This document shows positions 1 to 31,050 of a DNA stretch of 64,000 nucleotides, piece after piece. A model generated the notes under the pieces. It saw nothing but the letters and a program-made list of their open reading frames with translations. It did not search any database and was not told the origin of the DNA. Source of the DNA: Lingula anatina (Eukaryota; Animalia; Brachiopoda). Within the stretch, counting starts at the first letter, position 1, and every line of letters begins with the position of its first letter. The DNA lies in assembly GCA_051362555.1 (NCBI GenBank), contig CM120646.1, positions 5,580,001-5,644,000 on the forward strand, read 5' to 3'. The position numbers and the translations under genes were made by a program.

Positions 1-123
1 CATGACACATGAATAGAACAATGGTGACACTAAATACAACTGGTAAGAAGGGACAGACAGAGATAAGACAGCTTGACAGAAGTAAGCTTGAATATCTTGA
101 CATATTTGACATGGGGGATAAGG

Positions 124-131
124 TATAAAAG
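124..131 (+). promoter_or_regulatory. TATA box TATAAAAG, first of 37 copies (one per C unit; e.g. 1740, 3518, 5294, 6645, 63806)
   Basis: Exact TATAWAWR consensus (GGTATAAAAGC) with CA dinucleotides ~27-32 nt downstream (CCAGACAG). It lies 91 bp upstream of the first hairpin of each run and is retained in the diverged right-hand copies. Function is inferred. Confidence 0.55.
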
Positions 132-214
132 CAACTACACAGTAGAAACCAGACAGAAAGCTCTTGGATAAGAGCATAAGAACAGTCATGATGTAAGGTG
201 TGCATACATTTTGG

Positions 215-292
215 GCCATGATGTAGAATTGGCAGAAGATTGTGGCTGTGAATGTGACCAGTCATAATTTTATGTCAACATTACACCATGGT
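215..292 (+). ncRNA. Candidate pri-miRNA hairpin H1 (representative; one per A, B and C unit, ~230 copies estimated); predicted 5p AUUGGCAGAAGAUUGUGGCUG(U)
   Basis: Consensus GCCAUGAUGUAGA|AUUGGCAGAAGAUUGUGGCUG-UGAAUGUGAC-CAGUCACAAUUUUAUGUCAACAU|UACACCAUGGU. It has an ~11-bp lower stem, a 20-bp upper stem with G-U pairs and one G.A mismatch, a 10-nt loop, UGUG at the apical junction and CAGC (CNNC) at +17 (298-301). Folded by hand; cut sites are uncertain by 1-2 nt. Confidence 0.68.
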
Positions 293-337
293 ACAGACAG
301 CGTGAAAACACAAGTGAAGAAATAATCGAAGATTCAA

Positions 338-418
338 CCCACTGTATATTTTTGGCAATAAAGGAGTGGCTGGGGAATATAACACCAGTGCTTCTTTTTG
401 TCAAACCTGTTCAGTGGG
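338..418 (+). ncRNA. Candidate pri-miRNA hairpin H2 (representative; one per A unit, ~140 copies estimated); predicted 5p UUUGGCAAUAAAGGAGUGGCUG(G)
   Basis: CCCACUGUAUAUU|UUUGGCAAUAAAGGAGUGGCUGG-GGAAUAUAACA-CCAGUGCUUCUUUUUGUCAAACC|UGUUCAGUGGG. CCCACUG pairs with CAGUGGG at the base, flanks are 13 and 11 nt, the predicted pre-miRNA is 57 nt (351-407), and CCUC (CNNC) sits at +17 (424-427). Confidence 0.68.
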
Positions 419-1235
419 AAAAACCTCAAATAATGTAAAGAAATAGATGCAGATGGGATAAAAATTGGCCATGATGTAGAATTGGCAGAAGATTGTGGCT
501 GTGAATGTGATCAGTCGCAATTTTAAGTCAACATTACACCATGGTACAGACGGCGTTAAAAACAGTAGTGAAGAAATGTAAGAAGAAGATTCAACCCACT
601 GTATATTTTTGGCAATAAAGGAGTGGCTGGGGAATATAACACCAGTGCTTCTTTTTGTCAAACCTGTTCAGTGGGAAAAACCTCAAATAATATGAAGAAA
701 TTGATGCAGATGGAAAATAAATTTGGTCATGATGTAAAATTGGCAGAAGATTGTGGCTGTGAATGTGATCAGTCGCAATTTAAGTCAACATTACAACATG
801 GTATAGACGGCGTGAAAACAGAAGTGAAGAAATGTACGAAGAAGATTTAACCCCACTGTATATTTTTGGCAATAAAGGAGTGGCTGGGGAATATAACACC
901 AGTGCTTCTTTTTGTCAAACCTGTTCAGTGGGTAAAACCTCAAATAATGTGAAGAAATAGATGCAGATGGGATTAAAATTGGCCATGATGTAGAATTGGC
1001 AGAAGATTGTGGCTGTGAAACTGACCAGTCACAATTTTATGTCAACATTACACCATGGTACAGACAGCGTGAAAACAGAAGTGAAGATTTATTCGAAGAT
1101 TCAACCCACTGTATATTTTTGGCAATAAAGGAGTGGCTGGGGAATATAACACCAGTGCTTCTTTTTGTCAAACCTGTTCAGTGGGAAAAACCTCAAATAA
1201 TGTGAAGAAATAGATGCAGGTGGAAAACAAATTTG

Positions 1236-1313
1236 GTCATGATGTAAAATTGGCAGAAGATTGTGGCTGTGAAACTGACCAGTCACAATTTGATGTCAAC
1301 ATTACAACATGGT
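1236..1313 (+). ncRNA. H1 hairpin, B-unit variant (representative)
   Basis: Same 5' arm as H1. The flanks differ but still pair (GGUCAUG/CAUGGUC and UGUAA/UUACA), and the loop is UGAAACUGAC. Confidence 0.62.
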
Positions 1314-1392
1314 CAAGACAGCGTGAAAATACAATTGAAGACGAATCGAATGATGTTAAGAATTTGACACACGTTGGGAAAGATTATTTTAG

Positions 1393-1470
1393 GCCATGAT
1401 GTAGAATTGGCAGAAGATTGTGGCTGTTAAACTGATCAGTTGCAATTTCATGTCAATACTACACCAAAGT
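1393..1470 (+). ncRNA. H1 hairpin, terminal C-unit variant (representative)
   Basis: Same 5' arm. The 3' arm CAGUUGCAAUUUCAUGUCAAU still pairs via G-U and A-U, and UGUAG pairs with CUACA (G-C where other variants have G-U). The most basal pairs are weakened (CCAAAG). Confidence 0.55.
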
Positions 1471-1502
1471 CCAGTCAACAGCTTTGTTTGGTTTGTTGTA
1501 GG

Positions 1503-1508
1503 ATTAAA
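1503..1508 (+). terminator. Candidate polyadenylation signal ATTAAA after the last hairpin of each run (representative)
   Basis: ATTAAA is the common variant poly(A) hexamer. It lies ~35 nt after the C-unit hairpin, next to a GT-rich tract, in nearly all C units (ATTTAA at ~60128). Support is positional only. Confidence 0.3.
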
Positions 1509-1529
1509 CATTGTAAGATGATTAGTTTA

Positions 1530-1775
1530 CAGGTAGACAAGATAAAATCTTGATTGCAATCATAGCTGAGAAGTCACCTGTGGAAAGTCTACTACTTGGG
1601 CTGTGACAACTGTACACATGACACATGAATAGAACAATGGTGACACTAAATACAACTGGTAAGAAGGGACAGACAGAGAAAAGACAGCTTGACAGAAGTA
1701 AACTTGAATATCTTGACATATTTGACATGGGGGATGAGGTATAAAAGCAACTACACAGTAGAAACCAGACAGAAA
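1530..1775 (+). promoter_or_regulatory. Candidate Pol II promoter module in the unique part of unit C (representative)
   Basis: CAGGTAG at 1530, six same-strand TGACA at 1604, 1619, 1641, 1690, 1714 and 1723, AACAAT at 1633 (only some copies), and TATAAAAG at 1740. Confidence 0.45.
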
Positions 1776-4700
1776 GCTCTTGGATAAGAGCATAAGAACA
1801 GTCATGATGTAAGGTGTGCATAAATTTTGGGCCATGATGTAGAATTGGCAGAAGATTGTGGCTGTGAATGTGACCAGTCACAATTTTATGTCAACATTAC
1901 ACCATGGTACAGACAGCATGAAAACACAAGTGAAGAAATATTCAAAGATTCAACCCACTGTATATTTTTGGCAATAAAGGAGTGGCTGGGGAATATAACA
2001 CCAGTGCTTCTTTTTGTCAAACCTGTTCAGAGGGAAAAACCTCAAATAATGTGAAGAAATAGATGCAGATGGGATAAAAATTGGCCATGATGTAGAATTG
2101 GCAGAAGATTGTGGCTGTGAATGTGATCAGTCGCAATTTTAAGTCAACATTACAACATGGTACAGACGGCGTTAAAAACAGAAGTGAAGAAATGTACGAA
2201 GAAGATTTAACCCACTGTATATTTTTGGCAATAAAGGAGTGGCTGGGGAATATAACACCAGTGCTTCTTTTTGTCAAACCTGTTCAGTGGGAAAAACCTC
2301 AAATAATATGAAGAAATTGATGCAGATGTGATAAAAATTGGCCATGATGTAGAATTGGCAGAAGATTGTGGCTGTGAATGTGATCAGTCGCAATTCTAAG
2401 TCAACATTACAACATGGTACAGACGGCGTGAAAACAGAAATGAAGAAATGTACGAAGAAGATTTAACCCTACTGTATATTTTTGGCAATAAAGGAGTGGC
2501 TGGGGAATATAACACCAGTGCTTCTTTTTGTCAAACCTGTTCAGTGGGAAAAACCTCAAATAATATGAAGAAATTGATGCAGATGGAAAACAAATTTGGT
2601 CATGATGTAAAATTGGCAGAAGTTTGTGGCTGTGAAACTGAACAGTCACAATTTTATGTCAACATTACAACATGGTCAAGACAGCATGAAAATACAAGTG
2701 AAGACGAATCGAATGATGTTAAGAATTTGACACACATTGGGAAAGATTATTTTAGGCGATGATGTAGAATTGGCAGAAGATTGTGGCTGTGAATGTGATA
2801 AGTCGCAATTCTAAGTCAACATTACAACATGGTACAGACGGCGTGAAAACAGAAATGAAGAAATGTACGAAGAAGATTTAACCCTACTGTATATTTTTGG
2901 CAATAAAGGAGTGGCTGGGGAATATAACACCAGTGCTTCTTTTTGTCAAACCTGTTCAGTGGGAAAAACCTCAAATAATGTGAAGAAATAGATGCAGATG
3001 GAAAACAAATTTGGTCATGATGTAAAATTGGCAGAAGATTGTGGCTGTGAAACTGACCAGTCACAATTTGATGTCAACATTACAACATGGTCAAGACAGC
3101 GTGAAAATACAAGTGAAGACGAATCGAATGATGTTAAGAATTTGACACACGTTGGGAAAGATTATTTTAGGCCATGATGTAGAATTGGCAGAAGATTGTG
3201 GCTGTAAAACTGATCAGTTGCAATTTCATGTCAATACTACACCAAAGTCCAGTCAACAGCTTTGTTTGGTTTGTTGTAGGATTAAACATTGTAAGATGAT
3301 TAGTTTACAGGTAGACAAGATAAAATCTTGATTGCAATCATAGCTGAGAAGTCACCTGTGGAAAGTCTACTACTTGGGCTGTGACAACTGTACACATGAC
3401 ACATGAATAGAACAATGGTGACACTAAATACAACTGGTAAGAAGGGACAGACAGAGAAAAGACAGCTTGACAGAAGTAAACTTGAATATCTTGACATATT
3501 TGACATGGGGGATGAGGTATAAAAGCAACTACACAGTAGAAACCAGACAGAAAGCTCTTGGATAAGAGCATAAGAACAGTCATGATGTAAGGTGTGCATA
3601 AATTTTGGGCCATGATGTAGAATTGGCAGAAGATTGTGGCTGTGAATGTGACCAGTCACAATTTTATGTCAACATTACACCATGGTACAGACAGCATGAA
3701 AACACAAGTGAAGAAATATTCAAAGATTCAACCCACTGTATATTTTTGGCAATAAAGGAGTGGCTGGGGAATATAACACCAGTGCTTCTTTTTGTCAAAC
3801 CTGTTCAGAGGGAAAAACCTCAAATAATGTGAAGAAATAGATGCAGATGGGATAAAAATTGGCCATGATGTAGAATTGGCAGAAGATTGTGGCTGTGAAT
3901 GTGATCAGTCGCAATTTTAAGTCAACATTACAACATGGTACAGACGGCGTTAAAAACAGAAGTGAAGAAATGTACGAAGAAGATTTAACCCACTGTATAT
4001 TTTTGGCAATAAAGGAGTGGCTGGGGAATATAACACCAGTGCTTCTTTTTGTCAAACCTGTTCAGTGGGAAAAACCTCAAATAATATGAAGAAATTGATG
4101 CAGATGTGATAAAAATTGGCCATGATGTAGAATTGGCAGAAGATTGTGGCTGTGAATGTGATCAGTCGCAATTCTAAGTCAACATTACAACATGGTACAG
4201 ACGGCGTGAAAACAGAAATGAAGAAATGTACGAAGAAGATTTAACCCTACTGTATATTTTTGGCAATAAAGGAGTGGCTGGGGAATATAACACCAGTGCT
4301 TCTTTTTGTCAAACCTGTTCAGTGGGAAAAACCTCAAATAATATGAAGAAATTGATGCAGATGGAAAACAAATTTGGTCATGATGTAAAATTGGCAGAAG
4401 TTTGTGGCTGTGAAACTGAACAGTCACAATTTTATGTCAACATTACAACATGGTCAAGACAGCATGAAAATACAAGTGAAGACGAATCGAATGATGTTAA
4501 GAATTTGACACACATTGGGAAAGATTATTTTAGGCCATGATGTAGAATTGGCAGAAGATTGTGGCTGTGAATGTGATAAGTCGCAATTCTAAGTCAACAT
4601 TACAACATGGTACAGACGGCGTGAAAACAGAAATGAAGAAATGTACGAAGAAGATTTAACCCTACTGTATATTTTTGGCAATAAAGGAGTGGCTGGGGAA

Positions 4701-7700
4701 TATAACACCAGTGCTTCTTTTTGTCAAACCTGTTCAGTGGGAAAAACCTCAAATAATGTGAAGAAATAGATGCAGATGGAAAACAAATTTGGTCATGATG
4801 TAAAATTGGCAGAAGATTGTGGCTGTGAAACTGACCAGTCACAATTTGATGTCAACATTACAACATGGTCAAGACAGCGTGAAAATACAAGTGAAGACGA
4901 ATCGAATGATGTTAAGAATTTGACACACGTTGGGAAAGATTATTTTAGGCCATGATGTAGAATTGGCAGAAGATTGTGGCTGTAAAACTGATCAGTTGCA
5001 ATTTCATGTCAATACTACACCAAAGTCCAGTCAACAGCTTTGTTTGGTTTGTTGTAGGATTAAACATTGTAAGATGATTAGTTTACAGGTAGACAAGATA
5101 AAATCTTGATTGCAATCATAGCTGAGAAGTCACCTGTGGAAAGTCTACTACTTGGGCTGTGACAACTGTACACATGACACATGAATAGAACAAGGGTGAC
5201 ACTAAATACAACTGGTAAGAATGGACAGACAGATAAGACAGCTTGACAGAAGTAAACTTGAATATCTTGACATATTTGACATGGGGGATAAGGTATAAAA
5301 GCAACTACACAGTAGAAACCAGACAGAAAGCTCTTGGATAAGAGCATAAGAACAGTCATGATGTAAGGTGTGCATACATTTTGGGCCATGATGTAGAATT
5401 GGCAGAAGATTGTGGCTGTGAATGTGACCAGTCACAATTTTTTGTCAACATTACACCATGGTACAGACAGCGTGAAAACACAAGTGAAGAAATATTCAAC
5501 CCACTGTATATTTTTGGCAATAAAGGAGTGGCTGGGGAATATAACACCAGTGCTTCTTTTTGTCAAACCTGTTCAGTGGGAAAAACCTCAAATAATGTGA
5601 AGAAATAGATGCAGTTGGGATAAAAATTGGCCATGATGTAGGATTGGCAGAAGATTGTGGCTGTGAATGTGATCAGTCGCAATTTTAAGTCAACATTACA
5701 ACATGGTACAGACGGCGTTAAAAACAGTAGTGAAGAAATGTACGAAGAAGATTCAACCCACTGTATATTTTTGGCAATAAAGGAGTGGCTGGGGAATATA
5801 ACACCAGTGCTTCTTTTTGTCAAACCTGTTCAGTGGGAAAAACCTCAAATAATATGAAGAAATTGATGCAGATGGAAAATAAATTTGGTCATGATGTAAA
5901 ATTGGCAGAAGATTGTGGCTGTGAATGTGATCAGTCGCAATTTAAGTCAACATTACAACATGGTATAGACAGCGTGAAAACACAAGTGAAGATTTATTCG
6001 AAGATTCAACCCACTGTATATTTTTGGCAATAAAGGAGTGGCTGGGGAATATAACACCAGTGCTTCTTTTTGTCAAACCTGTTCAGTGGGAAAAACCTCA
6101 AATAATGTGAAGAAATAGATGCAGATGGAAAACAAATTTGGTCATGATGTAAAATTGGCAGAAGATTGTGGCTGTGAAACTGACCAGTCACAATTTGATG
6201 TCAACATTACAACATGGTCAAGACAGCGTGAAAATACAAGTGAAGGCGAATCGAATGATGTTAAGAATTTGACACACGTTGGGAAAGATTATTTTAGGCC
6301 ATGATGTAGAATTGGCAGAAGATTGTGGCTGTAAAACTGATCAGTTGCAATTTCATGTCAATACTACACCAAAGTCCAGTCAACAGCTTTGTTTGGTTTG
6401 TTGTAGGATTAAACATTGTAAGATGATTAGTTTACAGGTAGACAAGATAAAATCTTGATTGCAATCATAGCTGAGAAGTCACCTGTGGAAAGTCTACTAC
6501 TTGGGCTGTGACAACTGTACACATGACACATGAATAGAACAATGGTGACACTAAATATAACTGGTAAGAAGGGACAGACAGAGATAAGACAGCTTGACAG
6601 AAGTAAACTTGAATATCTTGACATATTTGACATGTGGGATAAGGTATAAAAGCAACTACACAGTAGAAACCAGACAGAAAGCTCTTGGACAAGAGCATAA
6701 GAACAGTCATGATGTAAGGTGTACATAAATTTTGGGCCATGATATAGAATTGGCAGAAGATTGTGGCTGTGAATGTGACCAGTCACAATTTTAAGTCAAC
6801 ATTACACCATGGTACAGACAGCGTGAAAACACAAGTGAAGATTTATTCGAAGATTCAACCCACTGTATATTTTTGGCAATAAAGGAGTGGCTGGGGAATA
6901 TAACACCAGTGCTTCTTTTTGTCAAACCTGTTCAGTGGGAAAAACCTCAAATAATGTGAAGAAATAGATGCAGATGGGATAAAAATTGGCCATGATGTAG
7001 AATTGGCAGAAGATTGTGGCTGTGAATGTGATCAGTCGCAATTTTAAGTCAACATTACAACATGGTACAGACAGCGTGAAAACAGAAGTGAAGAAATGTA
7101 CGAAGAAGATTTAACCCACTGTATATTTTTGGCAATAAAGGAGTGGCTGTGGAATATAACACCAGTGCTTCTTTTTGTCAAACCTGTTCAGTGGGAAAAA
7201 CCTCAAATAATGTGAAGAAATTGATGCAGATGGAAAACAAATTTGGTCATGATGTAAAATTGGCAAAAGATTGTGGCTGTGAAACTGACCAGTCACAATT
7301 TTATGTCAACATTACAACATGGTCAAGACAGCGTGAAAATACGAGTGAAGACGAATCGAATGATGTTAAGAATTTGACACACGTTGGGAAAGATTATTTT
7401 AGGCCATAATGTAGAATTGGCAGAAGATTGTGGCTGTAAAACTGATCAGTTGCAATTTCATGTCAATACTACACCAAAGTCCAGTCAACAGCTTTGTTTG
7501 GTTTGTTGTAGGATTAAACATTGTAAGATGATTAGTTTACAGGTAGACAAGATAAAATCTTGATTGCAATCATAGCTGAGAAGTCACCTGTGGAAAGTCT
7601 ACTACTTGGGCTGTGACAACTGTACACATGACACATGAATAGAACAATGGTGACACTAAATACAACTGGTAAGAAGGGACAGACAGAGATAAGACAGCTT

Positions 7701-10700
7701 GACAGAAGTAAGCTTGAATATCTTGACATATTTGACATGGGGGATAAGGTATAAAAGCAACTACACAGTAGAAACCAGACAGAAAGCTCTTGGATAAGAG
7801 CATAAGAACAGTCATGATGTAAGGTGTGCATACATTTTGGGCCATGATGTAGAATTGGCAGAAGATTGTGGCTGTGAATGTGACCAGTCATAATTTTATG
7901 TCAACATTACACCATGGTACAGACAGCGTGAAAACACAAGTGAAGAAATAATCGAAGATTCAACCCACTGTATATTTTTGGCAATAAAGGAGTGGCTGGG
8001 GAATATAACACCAGTGCTTCTTTTTGTCAAACCTGTTCAGTGGGAAAAACCTCAAATAATGTAAAGAAATAGATGCAGATGGGATAAAAATTGGCCATGA
8101 TGTAGAATTGGCAGAAGATTGTGGCTGTGAATGTGATCAGTCGCAATTTTAAGTCAACATTACACCATGGTACAGACGGCGTTAAAAACAGTAGTGAAGA
8201 AATGTAAGAAGAAGATTCAACCCACTGTATATTTTTGGCAATAAAGGAGTGGCTGGGGAATATAACACCAGTGCTTCTTTTTGTCAAACCTGTTCAGTGG
8301 GAAAAACCTCAAATAATATGAAGAAATTGATGCAGATGGAAAATAAATTTGGTCATGATGTAAAATTGGCAGAAGATTGTGGCTGTGAATGTGATCAGTC
8401 GCAATTTAAGTCAACATTACAACATGGTATAGACGGCGTGAAAACAGAAGTGAAGAAATGTACGAAGAAGATTTAACCCCACTGTATATTTTTGGCAATA
8501 AAGGAGTGGCTGGGGAATATAACACCAGTGCTTCTTTTTGTCAAACCTGTTCAGTGGGTAAAACCTCAAATAATGTGAAGAAATAGATGCAGATGGGATT
8601 AAAATTGGCCATGATGTAGAATTGGCAGAAGATTGTGGCTGTGAAACTGACCAGTCACAATTTTATGTCAACATTACACCATGGTACAGACAGCGTGAAA
8701 ACAGAAGTGAAGATTTATTCGAAGATTCAACCCACTGTATATTTTTGGCAATAAAGGAGTGGCTGGGGAATATAACACCAGTGCTTCTTTTTGTCAAACC
8801 TGTTCAGTGGGAAAAACCTCAAATAATGTGAAGAAATAGATGCAGGTGGAAAACAAATTTGGTCATGATGTAAAATTGGCAGAAGATTGTGGCTGTGAAA
8901 CTGACCAGTCACAATTTGATGTCAACATTACAACATGGTCAAGACAGCGTGAAAATACAATTGAAGACGAATCGAATGATGTTAAGAATTTGACACACGT
9001 TGGGAAAGATTATTTTAGGCCATGATGTAGAATTGGCAGAAGATTGTGGCTGTTAAACTGATCAGTTGCAATTTCATGTCAATACTACACCAAAGTCCAG
9101 TCAACAGCTTTGTTTGGTTTGTTGTAGGATTAAACATTGTAAGATGATTAGTTTACAGGTAGACAAGATAAAATCTTGATTGCAATCATAGCTGAGAAGT
9201 CACCTGTGGAAAGTCTACTACTTGGGCTGTGACAACTGTACACATGACACATGAATAGAACAAGGGTGACACTAAATACAACTGGTAAGAATGGACAGAC
9301 AGAGATAAGACAGCTTGACAGAAGTAAACTTGAATATCTTGACATATTTGACATGGGGGATAAGGTATAAAAGCAACTACACAGTAGAAACCAGACAGAA
9401 AGCTCTTGGATAAGAGCATAAGAACAGTCATGATGTAAGGTGTGCATACATTTTGGGCCATGATGTAGAATTGGCAGAAGATTGTGGCTGTGAATGTGAC
9501 CAGTCACAATTTTTTGTCAACATTACACCATGGTACAGACAGCGTGAAAACACAAGTGAAGAAATATTCAACCCACTGTATATTTTTGGCAATAAAGGAG
9601 TGGCTGGGGAATATAACACCAGTGCTTCTTTTTGTCAAACCTGTTCAGTGGGAAAAACCTCAAATAATGTGAAGAAATAGATGCAGTTGGGATAAAAATT
9701 GGCCATGATGTAGGATTGGCAGAAGATTGTGGCTGTGAATGTGATCAGTCGCAATTTTAAGTCAACATTACAACATGGTACAGACGGCGTTAAAAACAGT
9801 AGTGAAGAAATGTACGAAGAAGATTCAACCCACTGTATATTTTTGGCAATAAAGGAGTGGCTGGGGAATATAACACCAGTGCTTCTTTTTGTCAAACCTG
9901 TTCAGTGGGAAAAACCTCAAATAATATGAAGAAATTGATGCAGATGGAAAATAAATTTGGTCATGATGTAAAATTGGCAGAAGATTGTGGCTGTGAATGT
10001 GATCAGTCGCAATTTAAGTCAACATTACAACATGGTATAGACAGCGTGAAAACACAAGTGAAGATTTATTCGAAGATTCAACCCACTGTATATTTTTGGC
10101 AATAAAGGAGTGGCTGGGGAATATAACACCAGTGCTTCTTTTTGTCAAACCTGTTCAGTGGGAAAAACCTCAAATAATGTGAAGAAATAGATGCAGATGG
10201 AAAACAAATTTGGTCATGATGTAAAATTGGCAGAAGATTGTGGCTGTGAAACTGACCAGTCACAATTTGATGTCAACATTACAACATGGTCAAGACAGCG
10301 TGAAAATACAAGTGAAGGCGAATCGAATGATGTTAAGAATTTGACACACGTTGGGAAAGATTATTTTAGGCCATGATGTAGAATTGGCAGAAGATTGTGG
10401 CTGTAAAACTGATCAGTTGCAATTTCATGTCAATACTACACCAAAGTCCAGTCAACAGCTTTGTTTGGTTTGTTGTAGGATTAAACATTGTAAGATGATT
10501 AGTTTACAGGTAGACAAGATAAAATCTTGATTGCAATCATAGCTGAGAAGTCACCTGTGGAAAGTCTACTACTTGGGCTGTGACAACTGTACACATGACA
10601 CATGAATAGAACAATGGTGACACTAAATACAACTGGTAAGAAGGGACAGACAGAGATAAGACAGCTTGACAGAAGTAAGCTTGAATATCTTGACATATTT

Positions 10701-13700
10701 GACATGGGGGATAAGGTATAAAAGCAATTACACAGTAGAAACCAGACAGAAAGCTCTTGGATAAGAGCATAAGAACAGTCATGATGTAAGGTGTGCATAC
10801 ATTTTGGGCCATGATGTAGAATTGGCAGAAGATTGTGGCTGTGAATGTGACCAGTCATAATTTTATGTCAACATTACACCATGGTACAGACAGCGTGAAA
10901 ACACAAGTGAAGAAATATTCGAAGATTCAACCCACTGTATATTTTTGGCAATAAAGGAGTGGCTGGGGAATATAACACCAGTGCTTCTTTTTGTCAAACC
11001 TGTTCAGTGGGAAAAACCTCAAATAATGTAAAGAAATAGATGCAGATGGGATAAAAATTGGCCATGATGTAGAATTGGCAGAAGATTGTGGCTGTGAATG
11101 TGATCAGTCGCAATTTTAAGTCAACATTACACCATGGTACAGACGGCGTTAAAAACAGTAGTGAAGAAATGTAAGAAGAAGATTCAACCCACTGTATATT
11201 TTTGGCAATAAAGGAGTGGCTGGGGAATATAACACCAGTGCTTCTTTTTGTCAAACCTGTTCAGAGGGAAAAACCTCAAATAATGTGAAGAAATAGATGC
11301 AGATGGGATTAAAATTGGCCATGATGTAGAATTGGCAGAAGATTGTGGCTGTGAAACTGACCAGTCACAATTTTATGTCAACATTACACCATGGTACAGA
11401 CAGCGTGAAAACACAAGTGAAGATTTATTCGAAGATTCAACCCACTGTATATTTTTGGCAATAAAGGAGTGGCTGGGGAATATAACACCAGTGCTTCTAT
11501 TTGTCAAACCTGTTCAGTGGGAAAAACCTCAAATAATGTGAAGAAATAGATGCAGGTGGAAAACAAATTTGGTCATGATGTAAAATTGGCAGAAGATTGT
11601 GGCTGTGAAACTGACCAGTCACAATTTGATGTCAACATTACAACATGGTCAAGACAGCGTGAAAATACAATTGAAGACGAATCGAATGATGTTAAGAATT
11701 TGACACACGTTGGGAAAGATTATTTTAGGCCATGATGTAGAATTGGCAGAAGATTGTGGCTGTAAAACTGATCAGTTGCAATTTCATGTCAATACTACAC
11801 CAAAGTCCAGTCAACAGCTTTGTTTGGTTTGTTGTAGGATTAAACATTGTAAGATGATTAGTTTACAGGTAGACAAGATAAAATCTTGATTGCAATCATA
11901 GCTGAGAAGTCACCTGTGGAAAGTCTACTACTTGGGCTGTGACAACTGTACACATGACACATGAATAGAACAAGGGTGACACTAAATACAACTGGTAAGA
12001 ATGGACAGACAGAGATAAGACAGCTTGACAGAAGTAAACTTGAATATCTTGACATATTTGACATGGGGGATGAGGTATAAAAGCAACTACACAGTAGAAA
12101 CCAGACAGAAAGCTCTTGGATAAGAGCATAAGAACAGTCATGATGTAAGGTGTGCATAAATTTTGGGCCATGATGTAGAATTGGCAGAAGATTGTGGCTG
12201 TGAATGTGACCAGTCACAATTTTTTGTCAACATTACACCATGGAACAGACAGCGTGAAAACACAAGTGAAGAAATATTCAAAGATTCAACCCACTGTATA
12301 TTTTTGGCAATAAAGGAGTGGCTGGGGAATATAACACCAGTGCTTCTTTTTGTCAAACCTGTTCAGAGGGAAAAACCTCAAATAATGTGAAGAAATAGAT
12401 GCAGATGGGATAAAAATTGGCCATGATGTAGAATTGGCAGAAGATTGTGGCTGTGAATGTGATCAGTCGCAATTTTTAGTCAACATTACAACATGGTACA
12501 GACGGCGTTAAAAACAGAAGTGAAGAAATGTACGAAGAAGATTTAACCCACTGTATATTTTTGGCAATAAAGGAGTGGCTGGGGAATATAACACCAGTGC
12601 TTCTTTTTGTCAAACCTGTTCAGTGGGAAAAACCTCAAATAATATGAAGAAATTGATGCAGATGTGATAAAAATTGGCCATGATGTAGAATTGGCAGAAG
12701 ATTGTGGCTGTGAATGTGATAAGTCCCAATTCTAAGTCAACATTACAACATGGTACAGACGGCGTGAAAACAGAAATGAAGAAATGTACGAAGAAGATTT
12801 AACCCTACTGTATATTTTTGGCAATAAAGGAGTGGCTGGGGAATATAACACCAGTGCTTCTTTTTGTCAAACCTGTTCAGTGGGAAAAACCTCAAATAAT
12901 ATGAAGAAATTGATGCAGATGGAAAACAAATTTGGTCATGATGTAAAATTGGCAGAAGTTTGTGGCTGTGAAACTGAACAGTCACAATTTTATGTCAACA
13001 TTACAACATGGTCAAGACAGCATGAAAATACAAGTGAAGACGAATCGAATGATGTTAAGAATTTGACACACATTGGGAAAGATTATTTTAGGCCATGATG
13101 TAGAATTGGCAGAAGATTGTGGCTGTAAAACTGATCAGTTGCAATTTCATGTCAATACTACACCAAAGTCCAGTCAACAGCTTTGTTTGGTTTGTTGTAG
13201 GATTAAACATTGTAAGATGATTAGTTTACAGGTAGACAAGATAAAATCTTGATTGCAATCATAGCTGAGAAGTCACCTGTGGAAAGTCTACTACTTGGGC
13301 TGTGACAACTGTACACATGACACATGAATAGAACAAGGGTGACACTAAATACAACTGGTAAGAATGGACAGACAGAGATAAGACAGCTTGACAGAAGTAA
13401 ACTTGAATATCTTGACATATTTGACATGGGGGATGAGGTATAAAAGCAACTACACAGTAGAAACCAGACAGAAAGCTCTTGGATAAGAGCATAAGAACAG
13501 TCATGATGTAAGGTGTGCATAAATTTTGGGCCATGATGTAGAATTGGCAGAAGATTGTGGCTGTGAATGTGACCAGTCACAATTTTTTGTCAACATTACA
13601 CCATGGTACAGACAGCGTGAAAACACAAGTGAAGAAATATTCAACCCACTGTATATTTTTGGCAATAAAGGAGTGGCTGGGGAATATAACACCAGTGCTT

Positions 13701-16700
13701 CTTTTTGTCAAACCTGTTCAGTGGGAAAAACCTCAAATAATGTGAAGAAATAGATGCAGTTGGGATAAAAATTGGCCATGATGTAGGATTGGCAGAAGAT
13801 TGTGGCTGTGAATGTGATCAGTCGCAATTTTAAGTCAACATTACAACATGGTACACACGGCGTTAAAAACAGTAGTGAAGAAATGTACGAAGAAGATTCA
13901 ACCCACTGTATATTTTTGGCAATAAAGGAGTGGCTGGGGAATATAACACCAGTGCTTCTTTTTGTCAAACCTGTTCAGTGGGAAAAACCTCAAATAATAT
14001 GAAGAAATTGATGCAGATGGAAAATAAATTTGGTCATGATGTAAAATTGGCAGAAGATTGTGGCTGTGAATGTGATCAGTCGCAATTTAAGTCAACATTA
14101 CAACATGGTATAGACGGCGTGAAAACAGAAGTGAAGAAATGTACGAAGAAGATTTAACCCCACTGTATATTTTTGGCAATAAAGGAGTGGCTGGGGAATA
14201 TAACACCAGTGCTTCTTTTTGTCAAACCTGTTCAGTGGGTAAAACCTCAAATAATGTGAAGAAATAGATGCAGATGGGATTAAAATTGGCCATGATGTAG
14301 AATTGGCAGAAGATTGTGGCTGTGAAACTGACCAGTCACAATTTTATGTCAACATTACACCATGGTACAGACAGCGTGAAAACACAAGTGAAGATTTATT
14401 CGAAGATTCAACCCACTGTATATTTTTGGCAATAAAGGAGTGGCTGGGGAATATAACACCAGTGCTTCTTTTTGTCAAACCTGTTCAGTGGGAAAAACCT
14501 CAAATAATGTGAAGAAATAGATGCAGATGGAAAACAAATTTGGTCATGATGTAAAATTGGCAGAAGATTGTGGCTGTGAAACTGACCAGTCACAATTTGA
14601 TGTCAACATTACAACATGGTCAAGACAGCGTGAAAATACAATTGAAGACGAATCGAATGATGTTAAGAATTTGACACACGTTGGGAAAGATTATTTTAGG
14701 CCATGATGTAGAATTGGCAGAAGATTGTGGCTGTTAAACTGATCAGTTGCAATTTCATGTCAATACTACACCAAAGTCCAGTCAACAGCTTTGTTTGGTT
14801 TGTTGTAGGATTAAACATTGTAAGATGATTAGTTTACAGGTAGACAAGATAAAATCTTGATTGCAATCATAGCTGAGAAGTCACCTGTGGAAAGTCTACT
14901 ACTTGGGCTGTGACAACTGTACACATGACACATGAATAGAACAATGGTGACACTAAATACAACTGGTAAGAAGGGACAGACAGAGAAAAGACAGCTTGAC
15001 AGAAGTAAACTTGAATATCTTGACATATTTGACATGGGGGATGAGGTATAAAAGCAACTACACAGTAGAAACCAGACAGAAAGCTCTTGGATAAGAGCAT
15101 AAGAACAGTCATGATGTAAGGTGTGCATAAATTTTGGGCCATGATGTAGAATTGGCAGAAGATTGTGGCTGTGAATGTGACCAGTCACAATTTTATGTCA
15201 ACATTACACCATGGTACAGACAGCATGAAAACACAAGTGAAGAAATATTCAAAGATTCAACCCACTGTATATTTTTGGCAATAAAGGAGTGGCTGGGGAA
15301 TATAACACCAGTGCTTCTTTTTGTCAAACCTGTTCAGAGGGAAAAACCTCAAATAATGTGAAGAAATAGATGCAGATGGGATAAAAATTGGCCATGATGT
15401 AGAATTGGCAGAAGATTGTGGCTGTGAATGTGATCAGTCGCAATTTTAAGTCAACATTACAACATGGTACAGACGGCGTTAAAAACAGAAGTGAAGAAAT
15501 GTACGAAGAAGATTTAACCCACTGTATATTTTTGGCAATAAAGGAGTGGCTGGGGAATATAACACCAGTGCTTCTTTTTGTCAAACCTGTTCAGTGGGAA
15601 AAACCTCAAATAATATGAAGAAATTGATGCAGATGGAAAACAAATTTGGTCATGATGTAAAATTGGCAGAAGTTTGTGGCTGTGAAACTGAACAGTCACA
15701 ATTTTATGTCAACATTACAACATGGTCAAGACAGCATGAAAATACAAGTGAAGACGAATCGAATGATGTTAAGAATTTGACACACATTGGGAAAGATTAT
15801 TTTAGGCCATGATGTAGAATTGGCAGAAGATTGTGGCTGTAAAACTGATCAGTTGCAATTTCATGTCAATACTACACCAAAGTCCAGTCAACAGCTTTGT
15901 TTGGTTTGTTGTAGGATTAAACATTGTAAGATGATTAGTTTACAGGTAGACAAGATAAAATCTTGATTGCAATCATAGCTGAGAAGTCACCTGTGGAAAG
16001 TCTACTACTTGGGCTGTGACAACTGTACACATGACACATGAATAGAACAAGGGTGACACTAAATACAACTGGTAAGAATGGACAGACAGAGATAAGACAG
16101 CTTGACAGAAGTAAACTTGAATATCTTGACATATTTGACATGGGGGATGAGGTATAAAAGCAACTACACAGTAGAAACCAGACAGAAAGCTCTTGGATAA
16201 GAGCATAAGAACAGTCATGATGTAAGGTGTGCATAAATTTTGGGCCATGATGTAGAATTGGCAGAAGATTGTGGCTGTGAATGTGACCAGTCACAATTTT
16301 TTGTCAACATTACACCATGGTACAGACAGCGTGAAAACACAAGTGAAGAAATATTCAACCCACTGTATATTTTTGGCAATAAAGGAGTGGCTGGGGAATA
16401 TAACACCAGTGCTTCTTTTTGTCAAACCTGTTCAGTGGGAAAAACCTCAAATAATGTGAAGAAATAGATGCAGTTGGGATAAAAATTGGCCATGATGTAG
16501 GATTGGCAGAAGATTGTGGCTGTGAATGTGATCAGTCGCAATTTTAAGTCAACATTACAACATGGTACACACGGCGTTAAAAACAGTAGTGAAGAAATGT
16601 ACGAAGAAGATTCAACCCACTGTATATTTTTGGCAATAAAGGAGTGGCTGGGGAATATAACACCAGTGCTTCTTTTTGTCAAACCTGTTCAGTGGGAAAA

Positions 16701-19700
16701 ACCTCAAATAATATGAAGAAATTGATGCAGATGGAAAATAAATTTGGTCATGATGTAAAATTGGCAGAAGATTGTGGCTGTGAATGTGATCAGTCGCAAT
16801 TTAAGTCAACATTACAACATGGTATAGACGGCGTGAAAACAGAAGTGAAGAAATGTACGAAGAAGATTTAACCCCACTGTATATTTTTGGCAATAAAGGA
16901 GTGGCTGGGGAATATAACACCAGTGCTTCTTTTTGTCAAACCTGTTCAGTGGGTAAAACCTCAAATAATGTGAAGAAATAGATGCAGATGGGATTAAAAT
17001 TGGCCATGATGTAGAATTGGCAGAAGATTGTGGCTGTGAAACTGACCAGTCACAATTTTATGTCAACATTACACCATGGTACAGACAGCGTGAAAACACA
17101 AGTGAAGATTTATTCGAAGATTCAACCCACTGTATATTTTTGGCAATAAAGGAGTGGCTGGGGAATATAACACCAGTGCTTCTTTTTGTCAAACCTGTTC
17201 AGTGGGAAAAACCTCAAATAATGTGAAGAAATAGATGCAGATGGAAAACAAATTTGGTCATGATGTAAAATTGGCAGAAGATTGTGGCTGTGAAACTGAC
17301 CAGTCACAATTTGATGTCAACATTACAACATGGTCAAGACAGCGTGAAAATACAATTGAAGACGAATCGAATGATGTTAAGAATTTGACACACGTTGGGA
17401 AAGATTATTTTAGGCCATGATGTAGAATTGGCAGAAGATTGTGGCTGTTAAACTGATCAGTTGCAATTTCATGTCAATACTACACCAAAGTCCAGTCAAC
17501 AGCTTTGTTTGGTTTGTTGTAGGATTAAACATTGTAAGATGATTAGTTTACAGGTAGACAAGATAAAATCTTGATTGCAATCATAGCTGAGAAGTCACCT
17601 GTGGAAAGTCTACTACTTGGGCTGTGACAACTGTACACATGACACATGAATAGAACAATGGTGACACTAAATACAACTGGTAAGAAGGGACAGACAGAGA
17701 AAAGACAGCTTGACAGAAGTAAACTTGAATATCTTGACATATTTGACATGGGGGATGAGGTATAAAAGCAACTACACAGTAGAAACCAGACAGAAAGCTC
17801 TTGGATAAGAGCATAAGAACAGTCATGATGTAAGGTGTGCATAAATTTTGGGCCATGATGTAGAATTGGCAGAAGATTGTGGCTGTGAATGTGACCAGTC
17901 ACAATTTTATGTCAACATTACACCATGGTACAGACAGCATGAAAACACAAGTGAAGAAATATTCAAAGATTCAACCCACTGTATATTTTTGGCAATAAAG
18001 GAGTGGCTGGGGAATATAACACCAGTGCTTCTTTTTGTCAAACCTGTTCAGAGGGAAAAACCTCAAATAATGTGAAGAAATAGATGCAGATGGGATAAAA
18101 ATTGGCCATGATGTAGAATTGGCAGAAGATTGTGGCTGTGAATGTGATCAGTCGCAATTTTAAGTCAACATTACAACATGGTACAGACGGCGTTAAAAAC
18201 AGAAGTGAAGAAATGTACGAAGAAGATTTAACCCACTGTATATTTTTGGCAATAAAGGAGTGGCTGGGGAATATAACACCAGTGCTTCTTTTTGTCAAAC
18301 CTGTTCAGTGGGAAAAACCTCAAATAATATGAAGAAATTGATGCAGAAGGGATAAAAATTGGCCATGATGTAGAATTGGCAGAAGATTGTGGCTGTGAAT
18401 GTGATCAGTCGCAATTCTAAGTCAACATTACAACATGGTACAGAGGGCGTGAAAACAGAAATGAAGAAATGTACGAAGAAGATTTAACCCCACTGTATAT
18501 TTTTGGCAATAAAGGAGTGGCTGGGGAATATAACACCAGTGCTTCTTTTTGTCAAACCTGTTCAGTGGGAAAAACCTCAAATAATATGAAGAAATTGATG
18601 CAGATGGAAAACAAATTTGGTCATGATGTAAAATTGGCAGAAGTTTGTGGCTGTGAAACTGAACAGTCACAATTTTATGTCAACATTACAACATGGTCAA
18701 GACAGCATGAAAATACAAGTGAAGACGAATCGAATGATGTTAAGAATTTGACACACATTGGGAAAGATTATTTTAGGCCATGATGTAGAATTGGCAGAAG
18801 ATTGTGGCTGTAAAACTGATCAGTCACAATTTTATGTCAACATTACACCATGGTACAGACAACGTGAAAACACAAGTGAAGAAATATTCAAAGATTCAAC
18901 CCACTGTATATTTTTGGCAATAAAGGAGTGGCTGGGGAATATAACACCAGTGCTTCTTTTTGTCAAACCTGTTCAGAGGGAAAAACCTCAAATAATGTGA
19001 AGAAATAGATGCAGATGGGATAAAAATTGGCCATGATGTAGAATTGGCAGAAGATTGTGGCTGTGAATGTGATCAGTCGCAATTTTAAGTCAACATTACA
19101 ACATGGTACAGACGGCGTTAAAAACAGTAGTGAAGAAATGTAAGAAGAAGATTCAACCCACTGTATATTTTTGGCAATAAAGGAGTGGCTGGGGAATATA
19201 ACACCAGTGCTTCTTTTTGTCAAACCTGTTCAGTGGGAAAAACCTCAAATAATATGAAGAAATTGATGCAGATGGAAAACAAATTTGGTCATGATGTAAA
19301 ATTGGCAGAAGTTTGTGGCTGTGAATGTGATCAGTCGCAATTTAAGTCAACATTACAACATGGTCAAGACAGCATGAAAATACAAGTGAAGACGAATCGA
19401 ATGATGTTAAGAATTTGACACACATTGGGAAAGATTATTTTAGGCCATGATGTAGAATTGGCAGAAGATTGTGGCTGTAAAACTGATCAGTCACAATTTT
19501 ATGTCAACATTACACCATGGTACAGACAACGTGAAAACACAAGTGAAGAAATATTCGAAGATTCAACCCACTGTATATTTTTGGCAATAAAGGAGTGGCT
19601 GGGGAATATAACACCAGTGCTTCTTTTTGTCAAACCTGTTCAGTGGGAAAAACCTCAAATAATGTGAAGAAATAGATGCAGATGGAAAACAAATTTGGTC

Positions 19701-22700
19701 ATGATGTAAAATTGGCAGAAGATTGTGGCTGTGAAACTGACCAGTCACAATTTGATGTCAACATTACAACATGGTCAAGACAGCGTGAAAATACAAGTGA
19801 AGACAAATCGAATGATGTTAAGAATTTGACACACGTTGGGAAAGATTATTTTAGGCCATGATGTAGAATTGGCAGAAGATTGTGGCTGTTAAACTGATCA
19901 GTTGCAATTTCATGTCAATACTACACCAAAGTCCAGTCAACAGCTTTGTTTGGTTTGTTGTAGGATTAAACATTGTAAGATGATTAGTTTACAGGTAGAC
20001 AAGATAAAATCTTGATTGCAATCATAGCTGAGAAGTCACATGTGGAAAGTCTACTACTTGGGCTGTGACAACTGTACACATGACACATGAATAGAACAAG
20101 GGTGACACTAAATACAATTGGTAAGAAGGGACAGACAGATAAGACAGCTTGACAGAAGTAAACTTGAATATCTTGACATATTTGACATGGGGGATGAGGT
20201 ATAAAAGCAACTACACAGTAGAAACCAGACAGAAAGCTCTTGGATAAGAGCATAAGAACAGTCATAATGTAAGGTGTGCATAAATTTTGGGCCATGATGT
20301 AGAATTGGCAGAAGATTGTGGCTGTGAATGTGACCAGTCACAATTTTATGTCAACATTACACCATGGTACAGACAGCGTGAAAACACAAGTGAAGAAATA
20401 TTCAAAGATTTAACCCACTGTATATTTTTGGCAATAAAGGAGTGGCTGGGGAATATAACACCAGTGCTTCTTTTTGTCAAACCTGTTCAGAGGGAAAAAC
20501 CTCAAATAATGTGAAGAAATAGATGCAGATGGGATAAAAATTGGATATGATGTAGAATTGGCAGAAGATTGTGGCTGTGAATGTGATCAGTCGCAATTTT
20601 AAGTCAACATTACAACATGGTACAGACGGCGTTAAAAACAGAAGTGAAGAAATGTACGAAGAAGATTTAACCCACTGTATATTTTTGGCAATAAAGGAGT
20701 GGCTGGGGAATATAACACCAGTGCTTCTTTTTGTCAAACCTGTTCAGTGGGAAAAACCTCAAATAATGTGAAGAAATAGATGCAGATGGGATAAAAATTG
20801 GCCATGATGTAGAATTGGCAGAAGATTGTGACTGTGAATGTGATCAGTCGCAATTTTAAGTCAACATTACAACATGGTACAGACGGCGTGAAAACAGAAG
20901 TGAAGAAATGTACAAAGAAGATTCAACCCACTGTATATTTTTGGCAATAAAGGAGTGGCTGGGGAATATAACACCAGTGCTTCTTTTTGTCAAACCTGTT
21001 CAGTGGGAAAAACCTCAAATAATGTGAAGAAATAGATGCAGATGGAAAACAAATTTGGTCATGATGTAAAATTGGCAGAAGATTGTGGCTGTGAAACTGA
21101 CCAGTCACAATTTGATGTCAACATTACAACATGGTCAAGACAGCGTGAAAATACAAGTGAAGACGAATCGAATGATGTTAAGAATTTGACACACGTTGGG
21201 AAAGATTATTTTAGGCCATGATGTAGAATTGGCAGAAGATTGTGGCTGTAAAACTGATCAGTTGCAATTTCATGTCAATACTACACCAAAGTCCAGTCAA
21301 CAGCTTTGTTTGGTTTGTTGTAGGATTAAACATTGTAAGATGATTAGTTTACAGGTAGACAAGATAAAATCTTGATTGCAATCATAGCTGAGAAGTCACC
21401 TGTGGAAAGTCTACTACTTGGGCTGTGACAACTGTACACATGACACATGAATAGAACAAGGGTGACACTAAATACAACTGGTAAGAATGGACAGACAGAG
21501 ATAAGACAGCTTGACAGAAGTAAACTTGAATATCTTGACATATTTGACATGGGGGATGAGGTATAAAAGCAACTACACAGTAGAAACCAGACAGAAAGCT
21601 CTTGGATAAGAGCATAAGAACAGTCATGATGTAAGGTGTGCATAAATTTTGGGCCATGATGTAGAATTGGCAGAAGATTGTGGCTGTGAATGTGACCAGT
21701 CACAATTTTATGTCAACATTACACCATGGTACAGACAGCGTGAAAACACAAGTGAAGAAATATTCAAAGATTCAACCCACTGTATATTTTTGGCAATAAA
21801 GGAGTGGCTGGGGAATATAACACCAGTGCTTCTTTTTGTCAAACCTGTTCAGAGGGAAAAACCTCAAATAATGTGAAGAAATAGATGCAGATGGGATAAA
21901 AATTGGCCATGATGTAGAATTGGCAGAAGATTGTGGCTGTGAATGTGATCAGTCGCAATTTTAAGTCAACATTACAACATGGTACAGACGGCGTTAAAAA
22001 CAGTAGTGAAGAAATGTAAGAAGAAGATTCAACCCACTGTATATTTTTGGCAATAAAGGAGTGGCTGGGGAATATAACACCAGTGCTTCTTTTTGTCAAA
22101 CCTGTTCAGTGGGAAAAACCTCAAATAATATGAAGAAATTGATGCAGATGGAAAACAAATTTGGTCATGATGTAAAATTGGCAGAAGTTTGTGGCTGTGA
22201 ATGTGATCAGTCGCAATTTAAGTCAACATTACAACATGGTCAAGACAGCATGAAAATACAAGTGAAGACGAATCGAATGATGTTAAGAATTTGACACACA
22301 TTGGGAAAGATTATTTTAGGCTATGATGTAGAATTGGCAGAAGATTGTGGCTGTAAAACTGATCAGTCACAATTTTATGTCAACATTACACCATGGTACA
22401 GACAACGTGAAAACACAAGTGAAGAAATATTCGAAAATTCAACCCACTGTATATTTTTAGCAATAAAGGAGTGGCTGGGGAATATAACACCAGTGCTTCT
22501 TTTTGTCAAACCTGTTCAGTGGGAAAAACCTCAAATAATGTGAAGAAATAGATGCAGATGGAAAACAAATTTGGTCATGATGTAAAATTGGCAGAAGATT
22601 GTGGCTGTGAAACTGACCAGTCACAATTTGATGTCAACATTACAACATGGTCAAGACAGCGTGAAAATACAATTGAAGACGAATCGAATGATGTTAAGAA

Positions 22701-25700: not shown

Positions 25701-27316
25701 CATGGTACAGACGGCGTGAAAACAGTAGTGAAGAAATGTACGAAGAAGATTCAACCCACTGTATATTTTTGGCAATAAAGGAGTGGCTGGGGAATATAAC
25801 ACCAGTGCTTCTTTTTGTCAAACCTGTTCAGTGGGAAAAACCTCAAATAATATGAAGAAATTGATGCAGATGGAAAACAAATTTGGTCATGATGTAAAAT
25901 TGGCAGAAGTTTGTGGCTGTGAAACTGAACAGTCACAATTTTATGTCAACATTACAACATGGTCAAAACAGCATGAAAATACAAGTGAAGACGAATCGAA
26001 TGATGTTAAGAATTTGACACACATTGGGAAAGATTATTTTAGGCCATGATGTAGAATTGGCAGAAGATTGTGGCTGTAAAACTGATCAGTCACAATTTTA
26101 TGTCAACATTACACCATGGTACAGACAGCGTGAAAACACAAGTGAAGAAATATTCAAAGATTCATCCCACTGTATATTTTTGGCAATAAAGGAGTGGCTG
26201 GGGAATATAACACCAGTGCTTCTTTTTGTCAAACCTGTTCAGTGGGAAAAACCTCAAATAATGTGAAGAAATAGATGCAGATGGAAAACAAATTTGGTCA
26301 TGATGTAAAATTGGCAGAAGATTGTGGCTGTGAAACTGACCAGTCACAATTTGATGTCAACATTACAACATGGTCAAGACAGCGTGAAAATACAAGTGAA
26401 GACGAATCGAATGATGTTAAGAATTTGACACACTTTGGGAAAGATTATTTTAGGCCATGATGTAGAATTGGCAGAAGATTGTGGCTGTAAAACTGATCAG
26501 TTGCAATTTCATGTCAATACTACACCAAAGTCCAGTCAACAGCTTTGTTTGGTTTGTTGTAGGATTAAACATTGTAAGATGATTAGTTTACAGGTAGACA
26601 AGATAAAATCTTGATTGCAATCATAGCTGAGAAGTCACCTGTGGAAAGTCTACTACTTGGGCTGTGACAACTGTACACATGACACATGAATAGAACAAGG
26701 GTGACACTAAATACAACTGGTAAGAATGGACAGACAGAGATAAGACAGCTTGACAGAAGTAAACTTGAATATCTTGACATATTTGACATGGGGGATGAGG
26801 TATAAAAGCAACTACACAGTAGAAACCAGACAGAAAGCTCTTGGATAAGAGCATAAGAACAGTCATGATGTAAGATGTGCATAAATTTTGGACCATGATG
26901 TAGAATTGGCAGAAGATTGTGGCTGTGAATGTGACCAGTCACAATTTTATGTCAACATTACACCATGGTACAGACAGCGTGAAAACACAAGTGAAGAAAT
27001 ATTCAAAGATTCAACCCACTGTATATTTTTGGCAATAAAGGAGTGGCTGGGGAATATAACACCAGTGCTTTTTTTTTGTCAAACCTGTTCAGTGGGAAAA
27101 ACCTCAAATAATGTGAAGAAATAGATGCAGATGGGATAACAAGGCAGCAAAGCTGTCAAATGTACAGACAAAAACCAGAAAATAAAAACGCAGGAAATAG
27201 GATACTGTCAATTCTGATGAACTAATGTATTATGCTTACTGTAACTGCATAGCCAACATCAAATTCTTATTCTGCATAACATTGGATTAGGATGAAAGTA
27301 AAATGTGTATCAAGCA

Positions 27317-27541
27317 TTAGACTAAGTTCCCATACCTAAATCAATCTAACAGGATCAATGCAACTCCAAGGGGTTTCTCACTAAATTGCTTTCAGTTTGA
27401 GAGTCTTAGGATTCTGGCATGCCAGTTTCAGAAGGCGTGACAGACAACTAAGCCACTTACATTGATTGCAATTTAGCGAGAATTCCCATGGAGATAGATC
27501 GATCCACAGTTAGCGTGATAGGGTCTGGAAATAGTCCCTAA
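27317..27541. mobile_element. Decayed MITE-like foldback nested in the HINE
   Basis: CTCCAAGGGGTTTCTCACTAAATTGC (27364-27389) matches the reverse complement of 27468-27493 at 22/26. Similarity extends outward with indels to ~70-bp arms. A central palindrome CTGGCATGCCAG lies at 27415-27426. Confidence 0.55.
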
Positions 27542-31044: not shown

Positions 31045-31050
31045 AAAAGT

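Follow-up and report, generated by a model that had tools for sequence, protein, structure and literature searches.

Is an array of several hundred closely similar hairpins a working set of microRNA genes, or is it satellite DNA that still carries their outline? The question is raised by a 64,000-nucleotide stretch of Lingula anatina DNA (contig CM120646.1, positions 5,580,001 to 5,644,000; hereafter the window), for which a first-pass annotation had reported two hairpins, H1 and H2, sharing a Microprocessor register and the position of a downstream CNNC motif. Nearly the whole 64 kb is one tandem array, with a GC content of 37% and a steady strand skew, and it extends past both ends of the window, which is therefore a 64-kb slice. 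The array contains 229 H1 and 140 H2 copies, all on the + strand (at least 369 fold-back units), with an H1-H2 repeat length of 256 nt and a mean likeness among copies of 86% for H1 and 97% for H2. The large-scale layout is as follows:

1..27137, + strand, left array arm, continuing beyond the window start
27138..31130, no strand assigned, multi-copy mobile insertion that splits one unit and sits in an A-run of the array
31131..64000, + strand, right array arm, continuing beyond the window end

H1 frequencies refer to 228 parsed copies of the 229, the remaining one being a chimera (61545-61600) in which an H1 5p arm is fused via a common CTGT to an H2 lower stem, with the remaining part of H1 deleted. 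Three other H1 copies (50445, 53843 and 57912) are missing a portion of the 3p arm and contain a 16-bp tandem duplication; these are probably broken precursors. Copies from ~58000 to 64000 represent a more diverged subfamily, in which H2 carries CTCC at +18, and this may be a sign of a nearby array edge.

The hairpin features, whose coordinates and motifs were as first annotated, are listed below for the first copy of each type:

215..292, + strand, hairpin H1, 13/11 lower stem, predicted pre-miRNA 228-281 of 54 nt with a loop of 10
228..249, + strand, predicted H1 guide (5p arm), seed 2-8 UUGGCAG, identical in 212/228 copies
247..250, + strand, apical UGUG of H1, pre-miRNA positions 20-23
260..281, + strand, predicted H1 passenger (3p arm), 22 sequence variants
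298..301, + strand, CNNC of H1 (CAGC), starting at +17
338..418, + strand, hairpin H2, 13/11 lower stem, predicted pre-miRNA 351-407 of 57 nt with a loop of 13
351..372, + strand, predicted H2 guide (5p arm), seed 2-8 UUGGCAA, U at positions 1 and 9, identical in 136/140 copies
386..407, + strand, predicted H2 passenger (3p arm), C first, identical in 125/140 copies
424..427, + strand, CNNC of H2 (CCTC), starting at +17

H1 (215-292) folds at -31.7 kcal/mol and H2 (338-418) at -35.6 kcal/mol, each with a z score of -5.7 and with 0 of 200 shuffles as good. Including the flanks, the + strand values are -35.2 for H1 and -36.7 for H2, compared to -21.1 and -26.7 on the - strand (z of -1.1 and -2.3, respectively), indicating that strong folding is confined to the + strand. 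The stems measure 34-35 bp including G-U pairs, occur on one strand only, pair 19-20 of 22 arm nucleotides and span -13 to position 21-24; cuts are predicted before 228 and 351 and after 281 and 407, and both hairpins have a mismatch at -14/+12. Both thus display the arms of ~22 nt, ~19 pairs and loops of at least 8 nt of a canonical hairpin, and the available part of the MirGeneDB 3.0 description gives 22-nt arms, 19 +/- 1.6 pairs and loops of at least 8 (PMC11701709). The ~35-bp stem with a 13/11 basal junction is likewise present in both, measured from a cut that is itself predicted.

This register was the central claim of the first-pass annotation, and it is present in both hairpins; since the cut was placed 13 nt above the stem base, however, the argument is circular, and the 13/11 register provides no independent evidence. 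Some H1 variants also have a predicted stem that is 4 bp longer. Three points are not circular: the stem ends 21-24 nt above the cut, H2 bears a U-U mismatch at -6/+4 (the lower-stem mismatch of H1 is at -7/+5), and a conserved 22-nt window starts at 228. The apical UGU reported for H1 occurs at pre-miRNA positions 20-22 in all 228 copies, as UGUG in 177, and is nearly absent from H2 (1/140). As the annotation had suspected, a basal UG at -14 is missing (0/228 H1, 1/140 H2), as is a full GHG/CmR, of which H2 has no more than the -6/+4 mismatch, placed at -7/+5 in H1. Relative to canonical animal pri-miRNAs as described in the accessible parts of two sources (PMC11701709, PMC10954719), the array hairpins share the ~35-bp stem from -13 to +22, the CNNC, the UGU(G) of H1 and a wobble or bulge near 9-11; they differ in being without basal UG, full CmR/GHG and bulged GWG. 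According to the same parts of these sources, a subset of the motifs is usual in animal pri-miRNAs. The motif finding alone restates known pri-miRNA rules.

Retention of the CNNC motif was tabulated across all copies. A CNNC at +16 to +18 is found in 224/228 parsed H1 and 139/140 H2 copies, and three of the four H1 exceptions have an internal duplication that shifts the anchor. The variants CGGC, CGTC (motif at 36098 in the copy that begins the hairpin at 36026) and CTCC at +18, all noted earlier, were recovered. Based on local flank composition, the chance of a CNNC at +16 to +18 is 0.10 for H1 and 0.033 for H2, giving a joint chance of ~0.003 if the two were independent; because H1 and H2 are probably paralogues, they are not independent trials. 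Moreover, as copies are 86% (H1) and 97% (H2) alike, the retention counts mostly reflect homogenisation, and since a CNNC at +16 to +18 tolerates a 1-nt shift, it pins down neither the cut nor the seed.

Whether the motif mutates less than its neighbours, which the annotation had made decisive, received a divided answer: the H1 Cs are kept (1 step vs 5 at the Ns), while in H2 C+17 changes more. Among 216 H1 copies of modal length, parsimony assigned 4.2 steps per site to flank positions +21 to +30 and 1 step jointly to C+17 and C+20, placing this C pair 15th of 171 flank pairs by steps and 3rd of 171 by copies. C+20 is unchanged in 180 non-terminal copies; its CpG partner G+21 changed in 18. 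The 36 terminal-type H1 copies have another 3' flank, and their CNNC is still at +17. Few flank sites of H2 have changed as much as C+17 (4 steps, 5 copies, rank 165/171), and 4 of the 5 copies that lost it fall within the 12 that gained CTCC at +18. Pooling the four CNNC Cs against six other linker Cs gave 11/210, and a lack of change is also seen at 42 of 93 linker sites. Taken together, selection on CNNC is borderline in H1, does not emerge in H2 and is at most suggestive overall.

The description of H1 and H2 as two different hairpins was too strong. Their local alignment beats 1975 of 2000 shuffles, in a test that takes no account of both being hairpins, and they have in common UUGGCA at positions 2-7, a stem-top GUGGCUG, and CAGU and UGUCAA on the 3p side. 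The predicted guides differ by one seed base, at position 8. H1 and H2 are therefore, by their sequences, probably paralogues of one family. When placed in an assumed register, 9 lower-stem positions pair in both hairpins; at 4 of these both sides have changed, at 1 a single side, and 4 are the same. The geometry was kept while the letters changed, which favours selection on the precursor.

The distribution of variation among copies carries more weight than the motifs. Seed 2-7 UUGGCA lies at the predicted cut in 226/228 H1 and 139/140 H2 copies. Of the 235 windows of 22 nt in the 256-nt repeat, the one formed by the H1 5p arm, beginning exactly at the predicted cut (228), ranks first in conservation, and the H2 5p window is among the best 10. 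In a set of 136 H1-H2 units (89 haplotypes, terminal copies excluded), parsimony steps per site amounted to 0.09 (H1) and 0.23 (H2) in the 5p arms, compared to 0.95 and 0.41 in the 3p arms, 2.0 and 1.67 in the linkers and 2.3 in the H1 loop, which has 14 variants. The 5p arms differ from the linkers with p = 7e-7 and from the 3p arms with p = 0.009; gene conversion within the array makes the steps non-independent, so these p values are too small. The 5p arm is thus more conserved than the 3p arm, loop and flanks, as is expected of a mature arm. Further signatures of a 5p mature product are a weak or mismatched 5' end, U1 and U9 in H2, and 3p arms starting with C, a pattern taken from the part of the MirGeneDB 3.0 text that was available (PMC11701709).

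These data bear on two alternatives. One is that real microRNAs are produced in another register or from another arm, either by cuts shifted by 1 nt, with other seeds, or with H2-3p as the main product. The latitude of the CNNC permits such a shift, the H1 mismatch is at -7/+5 instead of -6/+4, and H2-3p is well kept (125/140 copies, 0.41 steps per site); its seed, AGUGCUU, is what we take to be a 1-nt shift of the miR-430/302 seed. In contrast, the minimum of steps begins at 228, the H2 mismatch is at -6/+4 in the stated register, the 3p arms start with C and do so in the stronger duplex end, and Rfam gave no mir-430 or other match at gathering level or at a meaningful E-value. We consider a different register or arm unlikely.

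The other alternative, that the array is satellite DNA amplified from an old microRNA pair and now mostly inert, with its motifs retained through homogenisation, draws on the youth and homogeneity of the copies (86% and 97%) and on the tolerance of a mobile element, the chimera and internal duplications. It also draws on the lack of a pair-keeping excess at paired sites within the array, where such substitutions, against an expected 0.29, made up 5/13 common and 9/27 rare changes in H1 and 1/3 common and 8/22 rare changes in H2. Against it, the variation that arose between copies spares the 5p arms with single-nucleotide precision, and a 160-bp satellite in the same window is without any fold signal (z above -1.4). 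Two further observations speak to this alternative, namely the promoter-like elements and the RNA considered below.

The hairpins are grouped in 37 units, each with its own TATA box. The elements of the first complete unit are:

124..131, + strand, TATAAAAG, predicted TATA box, first of 37
124..1739, + strand, first complete higher-order unit: TATA, H1-H2-H1-H2-H1-H2-H1-H2-H1-H1(terminal), spacer
1393..1479, + strand, terminal-type H1 with a weaker basal stem and a distinct 3' flank, CAAC at 1476-1479 (+17)
1471..1830, + strand, unit spacer, no strong hairpin (z above -2.3 for folds of 90-nt windows)

The unit grammar is uniform: (H1-H2) repeats are followed by H1 and then by a terminal H1, a type with 36 copies in the window. 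Units have a mean length of 1659 bp and contain on average 10.2 hairpins (range 2-23; n=35 units), corresponding to one TATA box per 1.7 kb. TATAAAAG occurs 37 times in the window, every time in a unit spacer, is present in 36/36 aligned spacers, and is separated from the first stem by 91 nt in 35/37 units. This spacing suggests that the boxes act as promoters, and a TATA word kept at a fixed distance in every unit is not what an inert satellite predicts. The TATAAA within TATAAAAG may have a second role as a variant poly(A) signal for the upstream unit. One unit (50868-51355) is without its first H1 and begins with H2, 140 nt below the TATA box.

The spacer at 1471-1830 also contains ATTAAA (1503-1508), the next TATA box at 1740, and six TGACA words. 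The latter lie at 1604-1728, in the 130 bp above the TATA box, and other spacers are alike in this respect. TGACA is presumably the TALE homeodomain word, and the six may represent a cluster of binding sites. The excess in this spacer (6 vs 2.1 expected) fails a best-5-mer test, being equalled in 407/2000 shuffles, and hence no transcription-factor claim is made.

The 27138..31130 insertion raises the question of whether the hairpins themselves might be transposon ends or a source of endo-siRNAs or piRNAs instead of microRNA genes, as a hairpin-bearing mobile element lies within the array. Reads ending at 27137-27138 carry a wide variety of flanks, indicating that the insertion is multi-copy. 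It has matching short terminal words, a 3' palindrome (31105-31130), a GAC-rich microsatellite and two runs of 160-161-bp tandem repeats (29043-29710 and 30242-31044), and is without a long reading frame (31 frames of 50-85 aa). In these respects it is built like the non-autonomous Helentron (HINE) of oyster, as far as the available portion of that report describes it (PMC7492417). Together with the hairpin anatomy, this build points to an animal genome, without narrowing it to one phylum. It is nevertheless unrelated in sequence to the hairpins, and it arrived later, splitting a unit. The hairpins, for their part, have stems of 34-35 bp that include G-U pairs and occur on one strand, as well as a constrained arm of 22 nt, and no minus-strand H1 or H2 copy with both arms reversed was found in the window (73 minus-strand matches to the H1 core were taken to be 3p arms). 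An origin of this kind is highly improbable.

Six RNA runs from three studies were analysed, with 6 to 26 in 100 of each examined. In three poly(A) runs of one study (X16, X17 and X18), sense reads cover only the spacers and the hairpins are depleted. Strand was called on the usual library type, a first mate on the - strand being taken as + strand RNA. The best-covered region is:

26540..26800 (end approximate), + strand, spacer copy with sense reads in runs X16, X17 and X18

Spacer depth reached 26.6, 13.9 and 19.9 in X16, X17 and X18, respectively, as compared to 0 to 1.9 in H1 and H2 bins, despite H1 outnumbering the spacers 6.2 times and H2 3.8 times. Array reads were almost absent from X19, X22 and X23. 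At 44 reads in 12.4 million records, or a few per million, the signal is low, as an inert satellite would predict; against that alternative, the RNA is stranded and skips the hairpins. With this evidence included, we judge a mostly inert satellite to be improbable. If hairpins are excised and only the polyadenylated tail is captured, a spacer-only pattern is expected, and the pattern is consistent with, rather than proof of, such excision.

The 5' edge of the RNA lies at +20, 19 nt below the predicted terminal-hairpin cut (6 molecules at depth 11 in one run), and is alike in X16, X17 and X18. This edge (1479 and 26540) coincides with the C that closes the CNNC of the terminal hairpin and at the same time opens a second CNNC (CAACAGC). 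One candidate reading is that it marks the stop of 5'-3' decay at a bound protein. Alternatively, the spacer RNA could be unrelated to Drosha, coming from a separate short transcript or from spacer-like copies elsewhere. An edge at +20 and not at +1 is in keeping with this, as are 5 of 13 tested X16 alleles (20 listed) that are absent from all 36 window spacers and 4 reads that stem from a diverged copy without the TATA word; these alleles and reads imply that part of the RNA derives from other copies. On the other side, 17 of the 44 reads are at least 99% and 40 at least 95% alike, no loose letters stand above the edge in the reads checked, and the edge is equal in three runs. A Drosha-independent origin is accordingly a real possibility, albeit the less favoured one.

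The earlier interpretation is thus partly supported: the claim that H1 and H2 are animal pri-miRNA hairpins stands, but mainly on evidence beyond that of the annotation, namely the 5p constraint, the arm lengths, the TATA grammar and the RNA footprint. We regard it as likely that the array is a genuine, very large multi-promoter pri-miRNA cluster with a miR-96/182-type seed. RNA polymerase II would transcribe the array, each TATA-headed unit representing one gene, with transcription expected to start ~30 nt below the TATA box (near 155), to pass through the alternating H1 and H2 hairpins and to terminate in the spacer that follows. From the stem base, Microprocessor would count 13/11 nt, aided by the apical UGU(G) in H1, the -6/+4 mismatch in H2 and the CNNC in both. 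Cleavage by Drosha-DGCR8 and then Dicer would yield two related 5p guides sharing the seed UUGGCA, and once the hairpins are excised, poly(A) selection would retain nothing but the polyadenylated tail downstream of the last one. Both guides would repress mRNAs with UGCCAA sites, the same 6-mer as for the miR-96/182 family. The high copy number and many promoters would suit a short burst of output, most likely in the early embryo or germ line, a setting suggested by analogy to miR-430 and the Tribolium clusters.

To which family does the array belong? Rfam returned 0 matches at gathering level in the 64 kb and, up to E 10, 19 weak matches (best 0.22), none of them meaningful and none from the miR-96/182/183 family. 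Membership in miR-430/427/302 was rejected on the grounds that there is no Rfam match and that the constrained arm is the 5p. As in the MIR-96 family, the predicted guide is a 5p arm with UUGGCA at positions 2-7. The H2 seed 2-8 equals that of flounder (PMC3144956) and Ciona (PMC2884542) miR-182, and nucleotides 1-9 equal those of flounder miR-182; by eye, the 3p side begins CAGUG or CGGUG in flounder, oyster (PMC4138081) and Ciona miR-182 and in H2. Ungapped identity, also by eye, is 11/22 to flounder miR-182, 10/20 to Ciona miR-182 and 10/22 to sea cucumber miR-96 (PMC4221132). The available text of one source permits no more than 4 mismatches to the mature sequence of a known member (PMC2884542); with identity at about half in four species, the array falls outside this four-mismatch rule and was not filed as a MIR-96 member. 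On sequence grounds, descent from miR-182/96 is about evenly balanced. Short matches call for caution: a mussel hairpin labelled miR-302a has the same first 10 nt as H2-3p, but its 5p arm is unrelated, and so 9-10-nt matches can arise by chance. The MIR-96 family moreover forms a three-gene cluster, miR-96/182/183, tied to sensory organs in the part of the source at hand (PMC4551935), unlike the array of hundreds found here.

In its build, the array resembles the zebrafish miR-430 locus, for which the accessible portion of a preprint describes 313 TATA-box promoters spread over 577 kb (bioRxiv 2021.08.09.455629). As far as that portion goes, both consist of tandem units with their own TATA box and several paralogous hairpins, hundreds in total, and the 313 promoters per 577 kb compare with 37 TATA spacers per 64 kb here, where the promoters are predicted. 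The spacer is ~360 bp here vs 650 bp in the miR-430 locus, and alternating pairs with a special terminal hairpin replace the miR-430 triplets. The predicted guides also differ from miR-430 in being 5p, with the seed UUGGCA. Embryonic expression, in miR-430 a burst at zygotic genome activation with clearance of maternal mRNA, is a feature that would extend to this array by analogy. The sequences thus liken the array to MIR-96 in target choice and to miR-430 in build, and it would not itself be miR-430.

Invertebrate precedents are smaller. In the excerpts available, the Tribolium mir-3851/mir-3836 clusters comprise 40 genes that are switched on shortly after genome activation and act on maternal mRNA (PMC4691753), and Ciona has clusters of 25 and 11 genes (PMC2884542). 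Judging from those excerpts, these clusters are similar to the array in being lineage-specific, with fast-evolving paralogues that differ by one seed base; they have ~ten times fewer copies (25 to 40) and other seeds, and a promoter repeated in each unit, as predicted here, was not noted for them. A metagenome scan gave 0 matches to a pattern fitting H2 only and 5 matches to a 20-nt H1 core, all without a hairpin and attributed to chance. No mature H1 or H2 match was among the matches listed for the available portions of the mollusc-survey, oyster, sea cucumber, Ciona and MirGeneDB 3.0 supplements. The array was not described in the titles and opening lines of abstracts retrieved by topic and sequence; a prior miRBase or MirGeneDB annotation is possible. 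Putative hairpins of an annelid, with UUGGCAAGU at their start and a hairpin array of 30 copies next to them, may be a candidate hint of a wider, unrecognised array family.

Although it resembles satellite DNA, the array likely ranks among the largest microRNA clusters other than the vertebrate miR-430 loci, whose many-promoter plan it would share while carrying another seed. Its hundreds of natural variants represent a ready series for studying CNNC use outside mammals. More speculatively, an invertebrate may have independently built a miR-430-type locus, its hundreds of hairpins headed by dozens to hundreds of TATA promoters, from the ancient sensory-organ seed of miR-96/182, fired at zygotic genome activation and clearing maternal mRNAs with UGCCAA sites, perhaps also seeding a transcription body; we offer this as a tentative proposal that could well prove wrong. 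If the array is active at genome activation, it would be a candidate maternal-clearance microRNA in an invertebrate group for which we found none described, and extreme promoter density would have arisen more than once.
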